The notes under the pieces are model-generated. The model was not told where the DNA came from. It saw nothing but the letters and a program-made list of their open reading frames with translations, and searched no databases. From a virus: 64,000 nucleotides of DNA. The stretch lies in the IMG/VR virus record IMGVR_UViG_3300016667_000666, positions 1 to 64,000 of that record; one strand, written 5' to 3'. Positions 12,781 to 25,809 of this stretch are shown here, piece by piece (the first letter of the stretch is position 1; each line of letters begins with the position of its first letter). Both the position numbers and the translations under genes were made by a program.

Positions 12781-12804
12781 GCGAACTACACAGTGTAGAT
12801 TCGC
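12781..12804 (+). repeat. Intergenic hairpin family B, copy B1 (GCGAA-CTACACAGTGTAG-A-TTCGC)
   Basis: Palindrome read directly, 25 nt upstream of ATG 12830. Confidence 0.8.
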
Positions 12805-12829
12805 TTAGCTCTTGAAAGGAGCAAACACC

Positions 12830-13093
12830 ATGGCTATCGTCAAACGCTCGTGGAACCACATCATTCTGGCCACCAACGGCCGCGCATACACCAGCCGCCA
12901 CGGCGTCATGCCGGGCGACGAGCTCGGCCGAATCGACGTGGAAATTGAGCTGCAAATGCTCAAGCCGAATGACTTCGTGATTGTGCGGCAGACGCTGATG
13001 GCACGCGTGCGTCGCACGCTGGCCGACGGTTCTGTGGTCTGCGTGCTGGCGAAGGCCAGCGCAGGCCGCAAGGCACGCGCTATCCATCTCTAA
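12830..13093 (+). CDS. Hypothetical protein (87 aa)
   Basis: SD GAAAGGAG lies 8 nt before ATG 12830. Confidence 0.7.
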   Translation: MAIVKRSWNHIILATNGRAYTSRHGVMPGDELGRIDVEIELQMLKPNDFVIVRQTLMARVRRTLADGSVVCVLAKASAGRKARAIHL

Positions 13094-13095
13094 GA

Positions 13096-13140
13096 TCGGC
13101 GAAACACGCTACTCAGTGCGATTGAGTAGCGTGTCTACGG
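13096..13140 (+). repeat. Intergenic element family E, copy E1 (45 nt, identical to 14486-14530)
   Basis: TCGGCGAAACACGCTACTCAGTGCGATTGAGTAGCGTGTCTACGG, containing a 12-bp hairpin ACACGCTACTCA/TGAGTAGCGTGT. Confidence 0.85.
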
Positions 13141-13216
13141 TTGTTGCTCATAAGAGTAACGTAAAATTGATCCGTACTGACGAGCCGTCAGCACGCTCTT
13201 GAAAGGAGCAACCCCC

Positions 13217-13654
13217 ATGTTGAACATGATTGAGTTCGCCGCCAGCCAGACCCCCACCACCGCCCCCGCCACCACCCAGCTCGACTTCCACAGCATCCTG
13301 ACCGCTCTCGGCCTTGCCGAGCAGCCCGCCGCTGAGCAGCCCGCCACCACCCCTGTCGAGAACTCGATGACGATCGAGTTCGACAGCCCGGATGAGTGTG
13401 AGTCGTTCGCCGTTGAGCGCAACGGCGTCATCGCACGATTTATGAAGAACCAACAGGTTTGGTGCCAAGTAAGCGATTCGCGTGGAAATCACCAAATCAC
13501 CGCGAAGATGACTCGCGTCTTCTTCGTCAACAAGGAGGGCGGCCTCATCGGCGAGACGGCAATTCTGCCAATCGTGGACAGCCAAGAGGTTGCCGACGCG
13601 CTGGTATGGCGCGCAGGCGTGATGCCGGAGGGCGACATCGTCACCCTTCGCTAG
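13217..13654 (+). CDS. Hypothetical protein (145 aa), Pro/Thr/Ala-rich N-terminus
   Basis: SD GAAAGGAG lies 8 nt before ATG 13217. Confidence 0.7.
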   Translation: MLNMIEFAASQTPTTAPATTQLDFHSILTALGLAEQPAAEQPATTPVENSMTIEFDSPDECESFAVERNGVIARFMKNQQVWCQVSDSRGNHQITAKMTRVFFVNKEGGLIGETAILPIVDSQEVADALVWRAGVMPEGDIVTLR

Positions 13655-13655
13655 T

Positions 13656-13693
13656 GTTCACCTGCAACGCTCACCTGCAGATATGGATGTGAG
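13656..13693 (+). repeat. Intergenic element family A, copy A1
   Basis: GTTCACCTGCAACGC-CTCAC-CTGCAGATATGGAT-GTGAG, starting 2 nt after the stop codon. Confidence 0.85.
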
Positions 13694-13705
13694 AAATACA
13701 AGATT

Positions 13706-13729
13706 GCGAACTACACAGTGTAGATTCGC
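13706..13729 (+). repeat. Hairpin family B, copy B2 (identical to B1)
   Basis: GCGAACTACACAGTGTAGATTCGC, 24 nt upstream of ATG 13754. Confidence 0.85.
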
Positions 13730-13753
13730 CTATGCCCACGAAAGGACAAACTA

Positions 13754-14053
13754 ATGGCTGTCATCACCGTTCGAAAAAATGAAAAAACGACCTCGAAGGT
13801 CGTCGCAATCGCGACGACCGCATACGTGGTCGTTAGTGTCCTTGTCGACGGCACCCAAGCCACTGCGGTGGCTTGGGGCGCCAACGACCCCGCTATCCGG
13901 TTGACTCTCAAGTTCGACGCCGCCATCAACAACACTGTTATCGTAGACTACGTCTGCGAGGACAAGGAAGTAATCGTCTCAACCGGGGTCTTTGAGGCCC
14001 CACGACAGGACGCGCTGCTGTTGGACATCTTAGAGGCGTTACGGCGCTTCTAG
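13754..14053 (+). CDS. Hypothetical protein (99 aa)
   Basis: SD GAAAGGA lies 8 nt before the ATG. Confidence 0.7.
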   Translation: MAVITVRKNEKTTSKVVAIATTAYVVVSVLVDGTQATAVAWGANDPAIRLTLKFDAAINNTVIVDYVCEDKEVIVSTGVFEAPRQDALLLDILEALRRF

Positions 14054-14055
14054 GA

Positions 14056-23661: not shown

Positions 23662-23662
23662 T

Positions 23663-24007
23663 ATGTCAATCTTACTGAGCTTGGAACTGCGACACGGGGA
23701 CTACGTGACGTATCCGACGGTTCACCTCCCCTTGGATGAAGACGACGATGTGATGGAGGACGACGACGAGCTGTGCGCGCTTGGTGTCGCACAGCTGCGT
23801 GCCATGACCGGTATGGCTCCTCCAGATCATGCTTTTATCGACACTTGGGACTCTTCTGATGGGTTTGCCCCAGAGGAGGTAGACCCCCCGTTCGTGTCAA
23901 TTCACTACACTGTGGCTGAAATTGTAAAGGCGGGTCTGACTGCCAGCGAATTTCAGCAAATCGTTACCGAGTTTGCTAATCAGCTTCTTAGCAAAAAAGG
24001 AGAATAG
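23663..24007 (+). CDS. Hypothetical acidic protein (114 aa)
   Basis: The SD lies within C3. Confidence 0.65.
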   Translation: MSILLSLELRHGDYVTYPTVHLPLDEDDDVMEDDDELCALGVAQLRAMTGMAPPDHAFIDTWDSSDGFAPEEVDPPFVSIHYTVAEIVKAGLTASEFQQIVTEFANQLLSKKGE

Positions 24008-24009
24008 TA

Positions 24010-24420
24010 ATGTCTTTCTTCACACGCGACAAGAACCGGTTTGGTGAGAACAAGTACGTCGTCACTGTCATCTGGCGTTCCGGAGACGTCTGGGCGCCGC
24101 TCGGCCTCCATTACTTTGTCTTTGACAACAAAGAAGAGGCCGAAGTGTTTTTTACCGACAAAGACCGGGCTCTCCGACAACGTTGGGAATATAACTGGCT
24201 AAACCAAGGCAACACATTTTGGACAGCCCGGATTCTTGTGATTCTTACCCAGCGCGACGGGCACTCGGAAAGAGGATGGCAAGGCTTTACCCTCAGCGAC
24301 GAAGAGGTTGTGCGTTCTTGTTTACAGCGCGAGATGGACCCGGAGCCCTGTCTTGCAGAGCGGGCCAAGCTGCTTGAGTCGCGTGACGTGCCGCTGTGGG
24401 TCGGCTGGAAGAAGGAATAG
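24010..24420 (+). CDS. Hypothetical protein (136 aa)
   Basis: SD AAAGGAG lies 7 nt before the ATG. Confidence 0.65.
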   Translation: MSFFTRDKNRFGENKYVVTVIWRSGDVWAPLGLHYFVFDNKEEAEVFFTDKDRALRQRWEYNWLNQGNTFWTARILVILTQRDGHSERGWQGFTLSDEEVVRSCLQREMDPEPCLAERAKLLESRDVPLWVGWKKE

Positions 24421-24492
24421 TCCGCCCTGAGTACGGAGGCAACAGGTTAAACTTTCCGTGTATTCTTTATTGTGTTTCTCAGAAAGGAAACA
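24421..24492 (+). repeat. Family C, copy C4 (stem variant ACGGA/TCCGT)
   Basis: TCCGCCCTGAGTACGGAGGCAACAGGTTAAACTTTCCGTGTATTCTTTATTGTGTTTCTCAGAAAGGAAAC. Confidence 0.85.
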
Positions 24493-24499
24493 AAGCACT

Positions 24500-25405
24500 A
24501 TGTCAGCACAAGTTGCATTCGAGGCCTTTGTGGAGATGTTGCTCGAGGCTGTGGAGCGGGGTGAGAAGACCGGAACATGGGTACGCCCGTGGGCCACTAT
24601 CGAGCCGCAACGATTTGACGGCAAGCTCGTGTACAGTGGTACCAACACGGTGTTCCTGTCCATGTACGCACACATGATCGAGCGTGCACAGCAGCAGGCT
24701 GAATGTCCGTACACGCACGAGCGTTTGCGGCTGATCTGGCAGGCCTGCCGAGACTTACCAAAGTTTACGCCGTACTACGGCACACTCAATCAATGGAATG
24801 AGGTCGGTGCTAAAGTCAAGGCTGAGGCCAAAGGCTTGCCGTTGATCCGCGGTAAAAGCGGTGTCAAAGAACTCGATGACGGGACGTTTAAGTACTACTC
24901 GTACTTCACCTCGTTCACTGTGTTCAACTCATCTCAGGTAGAAGGTTGGGAGCCACCTGAGGTTCAAGTCACCGATGCCGATACTGCCGCCGAGCAACGG
25001 TTTCACGACCTGATTGCTAAGCACAATCCCAAGGTCGTGCCTGCAGATCAAGCAGCGTTTGTCCCTCGCAAGGACGAGTTGTGGATGCCGGATCGAGAGT
25101 CGTTCCCAAATCGGAATGACTACTACGGCACGTTTGTACACGAGATGGTGCATTGGACAGGTCACGAGACTCGGCTGAACCGTAAGTTTGGGACAGATCG
25201 TCCCACGTACGCCTTCGAAGAGCTTGTGGCTGAGCTCGGCTCAGCAGTGCTTAGCACGTCGCTGGGCTTCACGGTCAACGACCGCAACACGCAGGCGTAC
25301 CTCTCTAGCTGGGGTAAGTGGCTGCGCGAAGATAAAACGGCTGGACGTCGTGCGTTGCGGCTTGCACGACAAGCAGTAGAGTACCTCGAGAAAGGAGGTG
25401 AGTAG
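24500..25405 (+). CDS. ardC: ArdC-like antirestriction protein: N-terminal ssDNA-binding (DUF1738-like) domain plus C-terminal HExxH metallopeptidase domain (301 aa)
   Basis: TGTWVRPW...YSGTNTVFL is N-domain-like. FVHEMVHWTGHETRLNR matches the ArdC/polyvalent-protein metallopeptidase motif. Confidence 0.7.
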   Translation: MSAQVAFEAFVEMLLEAVERGEKTGTWVRPWATIEPQRFDGKLVYSGTNTVFLSMYAHMIERAQQQAECPYTHERLRLIWQACRDLPKFTPYYGTLNQWNEVGAKVKAEAKGLPLIRGKSGVKELDDGTFKYYSYFTSFTVFNSSQVEGWEPPEVQVTDADTAAEQRFHDLIAKHNPKVVPADQAAFVPRKDELWMPDRESFPNRNDYYGTFVHEMVHWTGHETRLNRKFGTDRPTYAFEELVAELGSAVLSTSLGFTVNDRNTQAYLSSWGKWLREDKTAGRRALRLARQAVEYLEKGGE

Positions 25406-25406
25406 A

Positions 25407-25745
25407 TTGCCATCATATTTTATCTACGTACTGTCGTTGTTTTGGGCAAACGCAGGATTCGCACCGGGACGGTACCACATCCTGCACTCAAGCAGGTCGC
25501 TGTACATCTGTCGGCTGCATATTCTGCGGCATGGCGGGTACGGCATCGTGTACCATCGGCCAGTCGATCATCCTCGTGCTCCGGTAGAGTGCTGGGAAGC
25601 GGGCGTGCTGATCTGGCAAGACCGCCAGCTGTACACGCGCATCGCAACTCAAAATGTCAAGATCCAGCAGATGCTTGACAAGTCGTACCAGCGCGGCTCC
25701 GGCTGGACGATTCCTGACATCGACGATCGCGTCCCCCCTCTCTAG
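25407..25745 (+). CDS. Hypothetical protein (112 aa), TTG start
   Basis: SD AAAGGAGG lies 8 nt before TTG 25407. Its stop is followed by A6. The start is uncertain. Confidence 0.4.
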   Translation: MPSYFIYVLSLFWANAGFAPGRYHILHSSRSLYICRLHILRHGGYGIVYHRPVDHPRAPVECWEAGVLIWQDRQLYTRIATQNVKIQQMLDKSYQRGSGWTIPDIDDRVPPL

Positions 25746-25750
25746 GCTGT

Positions 25751-25781
25751 CTTGGCAACGCTCACCTGCGTCAGATGTGAG
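25751..25781 (+). repeat. Family A, copy A6 (shortest loop)
   Basis: CTTGGCAACGC-CTCAC-CTGCGTCAGAT-GTGAG. Confidence 0.75.
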
Positions 25782-25784
25782 GTA

Positions 25785-25809
25785 GCGGGGCTGCACAGTG
25801 TAGTTCCGC
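25785..25809 (+). repeat. Hairpin family B, copy B5 (GCGGGG-CTGCACAGTGTAG-TT-CCGC)
   Basis: The inner stem needs a G-U pair (CTGCAC/GTGTAG), which fits RNA rather than DNA pairing. Confidence 0.75.

Follow-up and report, generated by a model that had tools for sequence, protein, structure and literature searches.

A covarying hairpin repeated before small early genes of a tailed phage, compared with known intercistronic elements

The RNase III sites of phages T7 and T3 and of the Bacillus phage SP82 are repeated hairpins between early genes that define mRNA ends and leave protective hairpins behind; each is about 20 bp long or longer (some two helical turns), with the double-stranded RNA interrupted, often by an internal loop, and the cut is made inside the hairpin itself. 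The REP and BIME elements of enterobacteria, also intercistronic, are imperfect palindromes that stabilise adjacent mRNA and are prone to recombination. Here we describe a repeated hairpin, named B, that precedes eight to ten small early genes in a 64,000-nucleotide stretch of viral DNA (positions 1 to 64,000 of the IMG/VR record IMGVR_UViG_3300016667_000666; hereafter, the window, the coordinates of which are used throughout), and compare it with these and other known elements.

One of the closest described systems is the PeSL (promoter-early stem-loop) cassette of T4-type phages, in which a sigma-70 early promoter is joined to a stem-loop resembling a terminator (Arbiol et al., 2010, PMC2839356; Comeau et al., 2014, PMC4122927). 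The SAS and ESAS elements of Cluster K mycobacteriophages comprise a motif containing the Shine–Dalgarno (SD) sequence, found at the starts of a subset of non-structural genes and in one orientation; about half of the SAS have an inverted repeat immediately upstream, their function is thought to concern translation initiation, and a gene family may have the element in one genome and not in another (Pope et al., 2011, PMC3203893). Hammerhead ribozymes flanking single prophage genes cut polycistronic RNAs of about 2 kb in vitro, and their proposed task is to turn long transcripts into mRNAs of single-gene length (Perreault et al., 2011, PMC3088659). Repeated regulatory cassettes between orphan early genes are thus known from the PeSL and SAS/ESAS systems.

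A covariance model built on 17 copies was run over all 64 kb of the window, on both strands and with filters off. It gave eight matches at E<1e-3, all on the plus strand, all intergenic, and all between 12.7 and 25.8 kb; seven of them are strong (starts at 12778, 13703, 14104, 16568, 17067, 19566, and 25782, E-values from 1e-11 to 3e-6), and the next-best match elsewhere in the window had an E-value of 0.08. In 1.28 Mb of unrelated phage DNA the model found nothing at E<=0.1. The heptamer CACAGTG from the center of the hairpin is not enriched in the window (13 copies versus 10.7 expected); being at chance frequency, it shows that the signal is the whole hairpin and not the core word. A preliminary description of this DNA had placed palindromic hairpins at eight coordinates, and all eight hold one, seven of these being found by the model. 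At the eighth, 18455, a hairpin is in the right place, but its stem is different, the model misses it, and its membership in the B family is doubtful. Two B-like hairpins, at 12750–12774 and 16283–16305, lie beyond that list.

All copies are on the plus strand. B1 (12781..12804, GCGAA-CUACA-CAG-UGUAG-(A)-UUCGC; 43.4 bits, E 1.5e-10; predicted free energy of folding, dG, −11.5 kcal/mol) lies 25 nt before the start codon at 12830, and B2 (13706..13729; 47.1 bits, E 1.1e-11) lies 24 nt before the start codon at 13754. B3 (14107..14129, GCGGA-CUGC-GAGU-GCAG-(A)-UCCGC; 37.8 bits, E 7.5e-9; dG −14.6 kcal/mol) carries a 1-nt deletion in the inner stem. These are followed by B4 (16571..16596, GCGGGC-AUACA-CAG-UGUAU-(C)-GCUCGC; 35.7 bits), B5 (17070..17094, GCGGG-CUGCA-CAG-UGCAC-(UA)-CCCGC; 33.1 bits, also identified by folding), B7 (19570..19594, GCGGGU-CUACA-AAG-UGUAG-GCCCGC; 29.5 bits), and B8 (25785..25809, GCGGGG-CUGCA-CAG-UGUAG-UUCCGC; 35.8 bits, with three G·U pairs). 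The divergent analogue at 18455..18475, B6 (CAGUACACA-AAG-UGUGUGCUG), has a dG of −11.1 kcal/mol in sense and −6.8 kcal/mol in antisense. Of the two additions, B9 (16283..16305, GCGG-G-CUAC-AUAGG-GUAG-A-CCGU) is a new, weak copy whose model match spans 16280–16309 (21.7 bits, E 6e-4), and B0 (12750..12774, GCAACG-AUACA-AAG-UGUAA-CGUUGC), B-like in sequence and fold with a partial model match at E 6, stands in tandem with B1, upstream of it, in the first early gene's leader, and is identical in the related contig L208. The 3′ end of B lies 8–21 nt from the GGA of the SD sequence and 17–34 nt from the start codon; hence, the leader position assigned to it earlier stands, and the distance of 15–35 nt upstream of the SD does not.

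B consists of a stem of 11–12 bp, basal 5–6 bp included, and a 3-nt loop, with a predicted dG of about −7 to −19 kcal/mol. The apical stem is CUACA/UGUAG, with the variants CUGCA/UGCAG, CUGCA/UGUAG, AUACA/UGUAU, and CUACG/UGUAG, and the loop varies (CAG, CUG, AAG, UAG, GAG, CAA, AGA). One nucleotide is often bulged between the two halves, either an A of the 3′ arm or a U of the 5′ arm, the two being paired with each other in some copies; the asymmetries of B thus occur either way round, as also seen in the loops CAG and CUG. The inner stem had been given as CT(A/G)CAC-A-GTG(T/C)AG, of which the apical stem holds, but the central C·G of CACAGTG is unable to pair and the loop has three nucleotides. 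The switching of the outer stem between GCGAA/UUCGC, GCGGA/UCCGC, and GCGGG/CCCGC is borne out by the copies, and relatives widen the set with ACGAG, GCGAG, GUAGA, ACGGA, GCAGA, and GCGAAU.

The relatives, denoted here by L and a number, came from several searches. L007 is a 78-kb IMG/VR contig matched both by a degenerate B pattern and by a pattern for the upstream pseudoknot A, described below; with a longer A pattern, 24 loci were found in freshwater metagenomes, the largest contig having 94 kb; and the L5-gp82-like protein encoded at 20388–20879 led to closer relatives (L202, L204, L205–L212) from JGI and Logan assemblies. A search of IMG/VR for homologues of g20 gave nothing beyond a contig already known. 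Coding DNA of L007 is 64–70% identical to that of the window, and its intergenic elements are 85–100% identical.

Covariation was measured on 26 distinct copies of B from the window and about 30 related freshwater-phage contigs, in a hand-registered alignment. Standard pairs fill 96.3% of its 267 cells, and changes on both sides are seen at nine of 11 pairs, in 45 cells; none of 500 column shuffles matched any of five pairing measures, and sliding the 3′ partner as a control made the pairing drop to 19–51%. Since a hand-registered alignment is fitted to the structure, the count was redone on a plain MAFFT alignment of 21 complete units, which gives 98.6% pairing in B and six compensatory pairs. 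At basal positions 4 and 5, G-C and A-U are about equally frequent, and the apical pairs of CUACA/UGUAG are kept in 21–26 of the 26 copies per pair. At the gathering score, only two tRNAs match Rfam 15 in the window; even at E<=5, no match between 12.5 and 28.5 kb overlaps any copy of A or B.

Imperfect pairs allow the two strands to be compared. On the coding strand, there are 15 G·U cells versus two A·C (binomial p 0.001, or about 0.007 once events shared by descent are merged). Folding energies over all copies do not differ significantly between sense and antisense (Wilcoxon p 0.30), because most copies are near-perfect palindromes, and only the wobble-pair count discriminates between the strands. 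The copies at 16283, 16571, 18455, 19570, and 25785, in all of which G·U pairs are required, are by 2–10 kcal/mol more stable in sense than in antisense (the gain is 3.9, 4.2, and 10.1 kcal/mol at 16571, 19570, and 25785, respectively). Such pairs had been expected in B5 and B6; the copy at 18455 does need them, whereas that at 17070 has a C·C mismatch and a 2-nt bulge instead. Wobbles also arise between relatives: the 5′ arm of B1 is GCGAG in L208, where A-U becomes G·U; B6 gains a second G·U pair in L202, again from A-U; the G·U pair of B9 is A-U in L208; and the L202 orthologue of the copy at 25785 has a largely different basal stem that again pairs via two G·U. As neither a wobble bias nor covarying flanks would be needed by a duplex-binding protein, the constraint is on the sense-strand transcript. 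The earlier remark that the copies fit RNA folding is therefore supported by the sense-strand bias and by covariation on both alignments, which point to B as a transcribed RNA structure on the sense strand, rather than a DNA site.

B is one component of a larger unit, the order of which is stop codon, 6–9 nt, pseudoknot A, an A/U-rich linker of about 11 nt, B, 3–6 nt, SD hairpin, and start codon. This composite arrangement, already recognized in the preliminary description, is seen again in related contigs, at about 25 non-redundant junctions. In the window, A precedes B at 13706, 14107, 17070, 18455, and 25785, five junctions in all, and relatives add about 20 more; four places had been counted, all with a spacer AAGA(T/C)TGCG, which is seen at three, its GCG being part of the stem. 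A itself, taken initially for a plain hairpin, is an H-type pseudoknot. In the plus-strand copy at 13661..13693, identified by covariation, helix S1 (CUGCA/UGCAG) is interleaved with helix S2 (CUCAC/GUGAG); further plus-strand copies have the sequence coordinates 14062–14094, 14757–14787, 17027–17057, 18415–18447, and approximately 25751–25781. Both helices are 100% paired, with covarying pairs, in a MAFFT alignment (A4), and the 77 non-redundant A units from L007 and L166–L189 include many compensatory variants of S1 and S2, the unpaired ACG and GGAU being invariant.

About one third of these 77 units are followed by B, and the others go straight to the SD or bear unrelated short hairpins. 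Conversely, B occurs without A at 12781, 16571, and 19570, a different pseudoknot, A′ (16527–16556), lying upstream of the copy at 16571. Since A is often found without B, and B sometimes without A, the two are separable modules. The 3′ half of A (AAGGAUGUGAG) resembles an SD sequence and the 5′ half (CUCACCU) an anti-SD sequence; one variant, CCUGCGGUAGGAU, differs little from CCUGCGGUUGGAU in the 3′ region of 16S rRNA, possibly by coincidence. Other pseudoknot-like post-stop elements, in which two helices interleave as in A but the sequences differ, lie at 16527–16556, 17504–17535, 15534–15567, and 18989–19022, near 21310, and, as one family, near 22190, 23595, and 24425. Many post-stop elements have GGUAAC...(U)UAAAC(U)U in common. 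In L204, a post-stop element is present in nearly every intergenic region downstream of the gp82-like gene, eleven consecutive ones. The elements other than A may double as later-class promoters (GTAACA-16-TATTAT at 22204).

The linker between A and B (AAAUACAAGAUU at 13694..13705, plus strand) is A/U-rich and single-stranded, and is proposed to be an endonuclease entry site; it is typically 11–12 nt long and, judged by eye in relatives, about 80% A+U. Downstream of most B copies is an SD mini-hairpin with a stem of 4–6 bp, half of the SD lying in the loop and half in the 3′ arm; by folding, such hairpins are found on the plus strand at 12808..12822 (GCUC-UUGAAAG-GAGC), 13195–13212, and 16310–16326. 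Their arms covary (GCUC/GAGC, GUCC/GGAC, CCUC/GAGG, ACGUC/GACGU, GUGUC/GACAC), and nearly all early intergenic regions longer than 50 nt have a post-stop structure followed by a pre-SD hairpin. The SD mini-hairpin recalls the GGG-AUAGGAG-CCC SAS motif of Cluster K mycobacteriophages.

The slot between stop codon and SD that is held elsewhere by A and B is filled at 13097..13193 (plus strand) by a type II hammerhead ribozyme (Rfam RF02276, 27.6 bits, E 0.005). The alignment to RF02276 is end-to-end. Of the type II consensus (CUGANGA, GAAA, and an NUH cleavage triplet, within stems I–III and with stem II open), every core position is present, as CGAAAC, GUC, and CUGACGAG, along with stem II GCCG/CGGC; long loop insertions keep the score under the gathering score of 37. 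From the sequence, cleavage is predicted after GUC at 13137, upon which the upstream RNA would end in the 12-bp stem III and the downstream RNA would begin with stem I and the SD mini-hairpin. Copies are present in relatives (L007, 5889–5985 and 6789–6885; L208, approximately 940–1040), that of L208 having the canonical CUGAUGAG. A 45-nt perfect repeat (13096–13140 and 14486–14530), listed in the preliminary description as another repeat family, is the 5′ part of this hammerhead. The second copy in the window (14487–14560) has neither G8 nor A9, and the gene to which it is fused, present in full length in L208, retains only its 3′ half; this copy is thus a deletion remnant. The main reason for reading A-linker-B as a processing site is that its layout is that of the hammerhead minus the catalytic core. 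Loop I of the hammerhead, AAGAG, is complementary to a CUCUU immediately before the SD, and their pairing, at the usual pseudoknot position of type II hammerheads, competes with the SD mini-hairpin.

Comparison of relatives shows how genes move between these units. Contigs L173 and L185 are collinear, at about 91% identity, apart from one extra segment in L185, which consists of the 3′ part of A, linker, B, SD, a gene for 100 amino acids, stop codon, and the 5′ part of A. Accordingly, the single unit of L173 is a chimera of two L185 units, with the switch inside A. The extra gene is a homologue of the window gene 13754–14053, which in the window is likewise flanked on either side by an A-B unit. 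Similarly, the first two early genes, or cassettes, are in opposite order in the window (12830–13654) and L208 (141–932); the flanking intergenic modules are about 96% identical, and the points at which the overlapping alignments end are in the SD mini-hairpin and in B. Hence, gene content between A-B boundaries, which had been suggested for comparison, reveals gain or loss and reordering of cassettes, with breaks in A, B, and the SD hairpin. Recurring modules of 25–90 nt between many genes constitute patches of homology, and PeSL-like recombination is a consequence of these.

At orthologous junctions, B may be identical, compensatorily substituted, replaced by another hairpin, absent, or half-deleted. 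B7 is identical in L202, L205, L206, and L208–L211, and the g3 homologue in L185 has A-B upstream, as before B2; B9 is absent at the orthologous junction in L178, L171, and L007, and a 9-nt deletion in L208 has removed the 3′ arm of B6. Lack of the element at orthologous junctions had been named in advance as evidence against a function: it is kept at g3 in L185 and at 19570, and absent or replaced upstream of the genes at 16333 and 25838. Being kept at some orthologous junctions and lost at others, B is a portable module rather than a gene-specific signal. In distant relatives, the slot of B holds unrelated short hairpins, e.g., GCCCUGAGGGGC, UGUGCAAGUGCACA, and GCGGUAGGG..CCCUACCGC; together with the reversible asymmetries, this indicates that structure counts more than sequence.

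The explanation we favor, and to which we give about an even chance, is that B acts as a 5′-proximal protective or insulating hairpin on cistrons cut from a polycistronic early transcript. A long early transcript would be cut between cistrons: hammerhead junctions would self-cleave, and between A and B, the single-stranded A/U-rich linker, which sits within a region of 55–61% G+C, would be the target of an RNase E-, Y-, or J-type endonuclease from the host. Pseudoknot A or hammerhead stem III would then cap the 3′ end of the upstream message, and B or hammerhead stem I would become the 5′-terminal hairpin of the downstream message, where B would block 5′-end-dependent decay and prevent the ribosome-binding site (RBS) from pairing with upstream sequence. 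Each small gene would thereby have its own context-independent expression leader, and recombination at the recurrent modules would insert, delete, and reorder gene cassettes. If there is cleavage at A-B, it more likely occurs beside the hairpin than within it. It is known that 5′-terminal stem-loops block 5′-end-dependent attack by RNase E and RNase J. Engineered parts of the same logic have reportedly been made, namely, RiboJ, a ribozyme plus hairpin placed before the RBS (said to come from Lou and colleagues in 2012), and Csy4 sites placed between cistrons (Qi and colleagues, the same year). The protective and insulating role is proposed on account of this effect of 5′ stem-loops and the analogy with the RiboJ and Csy4 insulators.

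Several observations weigh against this explanation. The linker has only 3 nt at 25785 and 7 nt at 18455, leaving little room for an endonuclease. The apical stem is conserved far beyond the needs of a purely structural hairpin and is not especially rich in G+C, which hints at sequence-specific recognition or at homogenization by recombination. The hand-registered alignments of B (A2, A5) were fitted to the structure. Two copies, in L170a and L174, contain A·C mismatches; that of L174 is chimeric, with a 5′ arm of the GCGGA type and a 3′ arm of the CUCGC type, and looks like a recent recombinant. Absence of B at orthologous positions and the deletion of B6 in L208 mean that any benefit is quantitative. 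Finally, we infer, rather than observe, the promoter, polycistronic transcription, cleavage in the linker, and a stabilizing or insulating effect.

The conservation of the apical stem is the starting point of the main alternative, in which a sequence-specific RNA-binding protein, made by the phage or its host, recognizes the hairpin; candidates are an endoribonuclease (an RNase III-like or Cas6/Csy4-like nuclease acting at or beside the hairpin) or a translational repressor of an early regulon, as is T4 RegA. CUACA/UGUAG hardly varies, in contrast to the freely covarying basal stem, and its palindromic form suits a dimeric binder of double strands such as RNase III; a single bulged nucleotide often marks the boundary of the two stem halves, and the presence of B on a subset of early genes only is regulon-like. 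On the other hand, the loop and the bulge, which are the usual handles for proteins, are variable and occur in either orientation, the stem of 11–12 bp is short compared to the approximately 20 bp of classical RNase III substrates, unrelated hairpins substitute for B at orthologous junctions, and the conservation of the inner stem could stem from recombination among copies. Domain scans of the 62 window proteins revealed no nuclease, RNA-binding, or Cas6-like domain, which is a weak argument, as most early proteins are orphans. On balance, we consider recognition by a protein possible, if on the unlikely side.

More speculative, and unlikely in our estimate, is a wider scheme in which the early region is a processed array. 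All the small genes would be self-contained RNA cassettes freed from a polycistron by interchangeable devices, hammerhead or A-B; B would be the specific handle of a dedicated hairpin-recognizing processing or regulatory protein, a Csy4-like logic outside CRISPR, and A would be a nuclease-guiding motif or a self-cleaving one of a new kind.

B could also act as DNA, either as a palindromic operator with CTACA half-sites and a 3-bp spacer or as a recombination-provoking cruciform, the RNA hairpin being a by-product. As in many operators, the 13-bp palindromic core is conserved and the central triplet varies; the element is nearly symmetric and its asymmetries are tolerated inverted; breakpoints of cassette rearrangement fall within B, and chimeric arms exist. 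Yet an operator would not explain why the flanking 5–6 bp covary so as to keep complementarity, with several versions per genome, and neither a duplex nor a cruciform predicts the wobble bias of the sense strand. Every copy lies in a transcribed leader and none elsewhere in the 64 kb. No B copy is overlapped by any of the 11 promoter-like sites found between 10 and 29 kb, and the sole −10-like hexamer in B, TAGATT, is not conserved, being TAGATC, TAGCTC, TAGTTC, TAGGCC, and others in the remaining copies. Among the window proteins, no helix-turn-helix or ribbon-helix-helix regulator was detected. Recombination at repeats, in turn, needs homology alone and happens inside A as well. We therefore regard a role of B at the DNA level as improbable.

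An even smaller chance is given to A, linker, and B forming one RNA machine, e.g., a new class of self-cleaving ribozyme doing the job of the hammerhead. In its favor are the slot, occupied elsewhere by the hammerhead, and the invariant unpaired ACG and GGAU of A, which are flanked by covarying helices in a pattern typical of ribozyme cores; new ribozyme classes have reportedly been found near known ones (by Weinberg and colleagues in 2015). B is not obligatory, however, since two thirds of A units are without it and it stands without A at three sites; the linker varies in sequence and in length (3–12 nt), and no Rfam ribozyme model matches A-B even at the relaxed threshold given above. Pistol and HDV-like topologies were compared with A-B by eye and did not fit. 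The separability of the modules counts against B as part of a ribozyme; A by itself may be one.

Lastly, the hypothesis that B is a promoter element, of the N4 virion-RNA-polymerase hairpin type or a site for another phage polymerase or sigma factor by which the early genes would each have a start of their own just 3′ of the hairpin, is the most improbable, for although B has the 3-nt loop of N4 early promoters, lies like them some 20–30 nt before start codons, and occurs on contigs of 76–80 kb with a 2940-amino-acid open reading frame (ORF), its stem has 11–12 bp instead of 5–7, its loop sequence varies, its near-perfect palindrome gives no direction, its wobbles favor the non-template strand and become A·C on the template strand that N4 polymerase reads, and sigma-70-like promoters are found elsewhere in the region (e.g., 15166–15195). 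No polymerase match that would point to a giant virion RNA polymerase was found for the 2940-amino-acid ORF (PHROGs, PDB sequences), nor any RNA polymerase domain in the 61 other proteins (Pfam included), a result that a very divergent enzyme would escape.

The window derives from a tailed-phage genome with genes for a terminase with an intein, ribonucleotide reductase, family A DNA polymerase, DnaB-like helicase, RecA/UvsX-like recombinase, thymidylate synthase, and endolysin domains, and with two tRNAs. The large terminase gene (2069–4666) is apparently split by the intein, with an Intein_splicing match that falls short of the gathering score and a Terminase_6C domain downstream. The early region is on the plus strand, between strong terminators at 12572–12597 and 28391–28432, and contains about 33 genes, mostly small orphans; its G+C content is 55–61% compared to 45–50% in the rest of the window. 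Among 50,697 deposited phage records, megablast found no match to the region and hence no near relative, and the DNA polymerase has less than 28% identity to its best match among deposited phages, none of the relatives being cultured. An exact 24-mer B pattern had no match in 185,579 bacterial and archaeal genomes, and the A pattern matched these genomes once, by chance, within a gene from a Sericytochromatia metagenome-assembled genome; therefore, there is no clue to the host, no host repeat family, and no CRISPR-repeat mimicry.

The domain scans also revealed no RNA polymerase, sigma factor, RNase, Cas6, or DNA-binding regulator. A DUF2828/DUF7788/VWA protein with a Ro/TROVE-like architecture is encoded at 11119–12543, just before the early-region terminator. 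Homologues are found in at least 80 IMG/VR contigs, at 31–56% identity, and none of 80 such loci, used as a negative control, contains B, which argues against a link between B and this Ro-like protein. The 2940-amino-acid ORF (55134–63956, minus strand) contains 600-nt internal repeats and, at 63647–63821, a 9-nt tandem repeat in 13 copies; it has only a weak endonuclease match in PHROGs and none in PDB sequences, and the four large ORFs adjoining it (45598–54650) match no family. ORFs 17563–17841 and 17729–18148 overlap by 113 nt; the upstream one is Pro/Arg-rich, the equivalent 241 nt in L208 are uncalled, and this ORF may be a long structured leader instead.

As for candidate transcription signals, the leader before the first early gene (12652–12750) is conserved in L007 (5405–5500), L166, L183, and L186. 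Its sequence includes TTTGTGACTACC, of which L007 has two copies, and an inverted GTCACA...TGTGAC; a pair of hairpins in tandem comes next in every case. The leader may be an early promoter or operator region; no canonical −10 box was seen in it. Within 15123–15195, a 15-bp perfect hairpin, CCCACCUACACACUA/UAGUGUGUAGGUGGG, with a B-like CUACAC/GUGUAG core lies directly after a stop codon. On its 3′ side is the best sigma-70-like promoter of the region (TTGACG-18-TATAAT, 11 of 12 matches, 15166–15195). Other −10-like boxes are TGTATAAT near 20361 and GGTATAAT near 26652.

Compared with known systems, B belongs with the repeated regulatory leader cassettes of phage early genes and fails the defining features of both PeSL and ESAS/SAS. 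Like PeSL, the B unit is a short composite motif, a stem-loop included, repeated between small, mostly orphan early genes, and indel or replacement junctions between related phages fall in the motifs. The resemblance to T4-type cassettes, noted from the start together with the lack of a promoter in the present unit, thus holds, in that no sigma-70-like site overlaps B and the junctions fall in the elements. In contrast to PeSL, B has neither a promoter nor a U-tract (it is followed by UUAG, CUAU, AUAU, GUAU, UUUG, or AUAC, and no copy is among the 26 terminator-like sites), its sequence and phage lineage are unrelated, and the unit is formed by a pseudoknot, a hairpin, and an SD hairpin with RNA-type covariation.

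The likeness to ESAS and SAS is architectural only: an inverted repeat lies just upstream of an SD motif, on a subset of genes and in one orientation. The arms of ESAS have 17 bp with a spacer of 4–13 bp, compared to 11–12 bp and 3 nt in B; the SAS 13-mer GGGATAGGAGCCC has no match in the window with up to two mismatches, and, unlike in the B unit, no pseudoknot or ribozyme partner has been described for ESAS. B shares with RNase III sites the repetition of related hairpins between cistrons of an early, here presumably polycistronic, transcript, and differs in its stem, which is a single helical turn of 11–12 bp in all copies. With REP and BIME it shares repeated imperfect palindromes between operon genes; those elements, however, are chromosomal, genome-wide, in both orientations, and protect upstream 3′ ends, whereas B is not in the bacterial and archaeal genomes searched.

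Like the B unit, prophage hammerheads are intergenic in phage operons and flank single genes of varying identity. B is a plain hairpin with no catalytic core and would stand in for no more than the terminal stem of the ribozyme. The engineered RiboJ and Csy4 insulators correspond to the logic proposed for B in having a cut leader, a defined 5′ hairpin, and context-independent expression, the analogy being functional only.

Against this background, evidence for the B family is unusually clean. The covarying stem, the wobble bias on the sense strand, and the ribozyme found at the corresponding position jointly assign B to the RNA level and connect it with message processing. Near-identical contig pairs catch insertion and reordering of cassettes, the breakpoints lying within the elements, and link the reliable expression of dozens of unrelated small genes with their shuffling, two questions that are mostly considered separately. 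Pseudoknot A, with 77 units and rich covariation, is an uncharacterized structured RNA in its own right. If the insulating or stabilizing role is true, the B units would be natural counterparts of the ribozyme-plus-hairpin insulators and a source of compact, context-independent expression parts.

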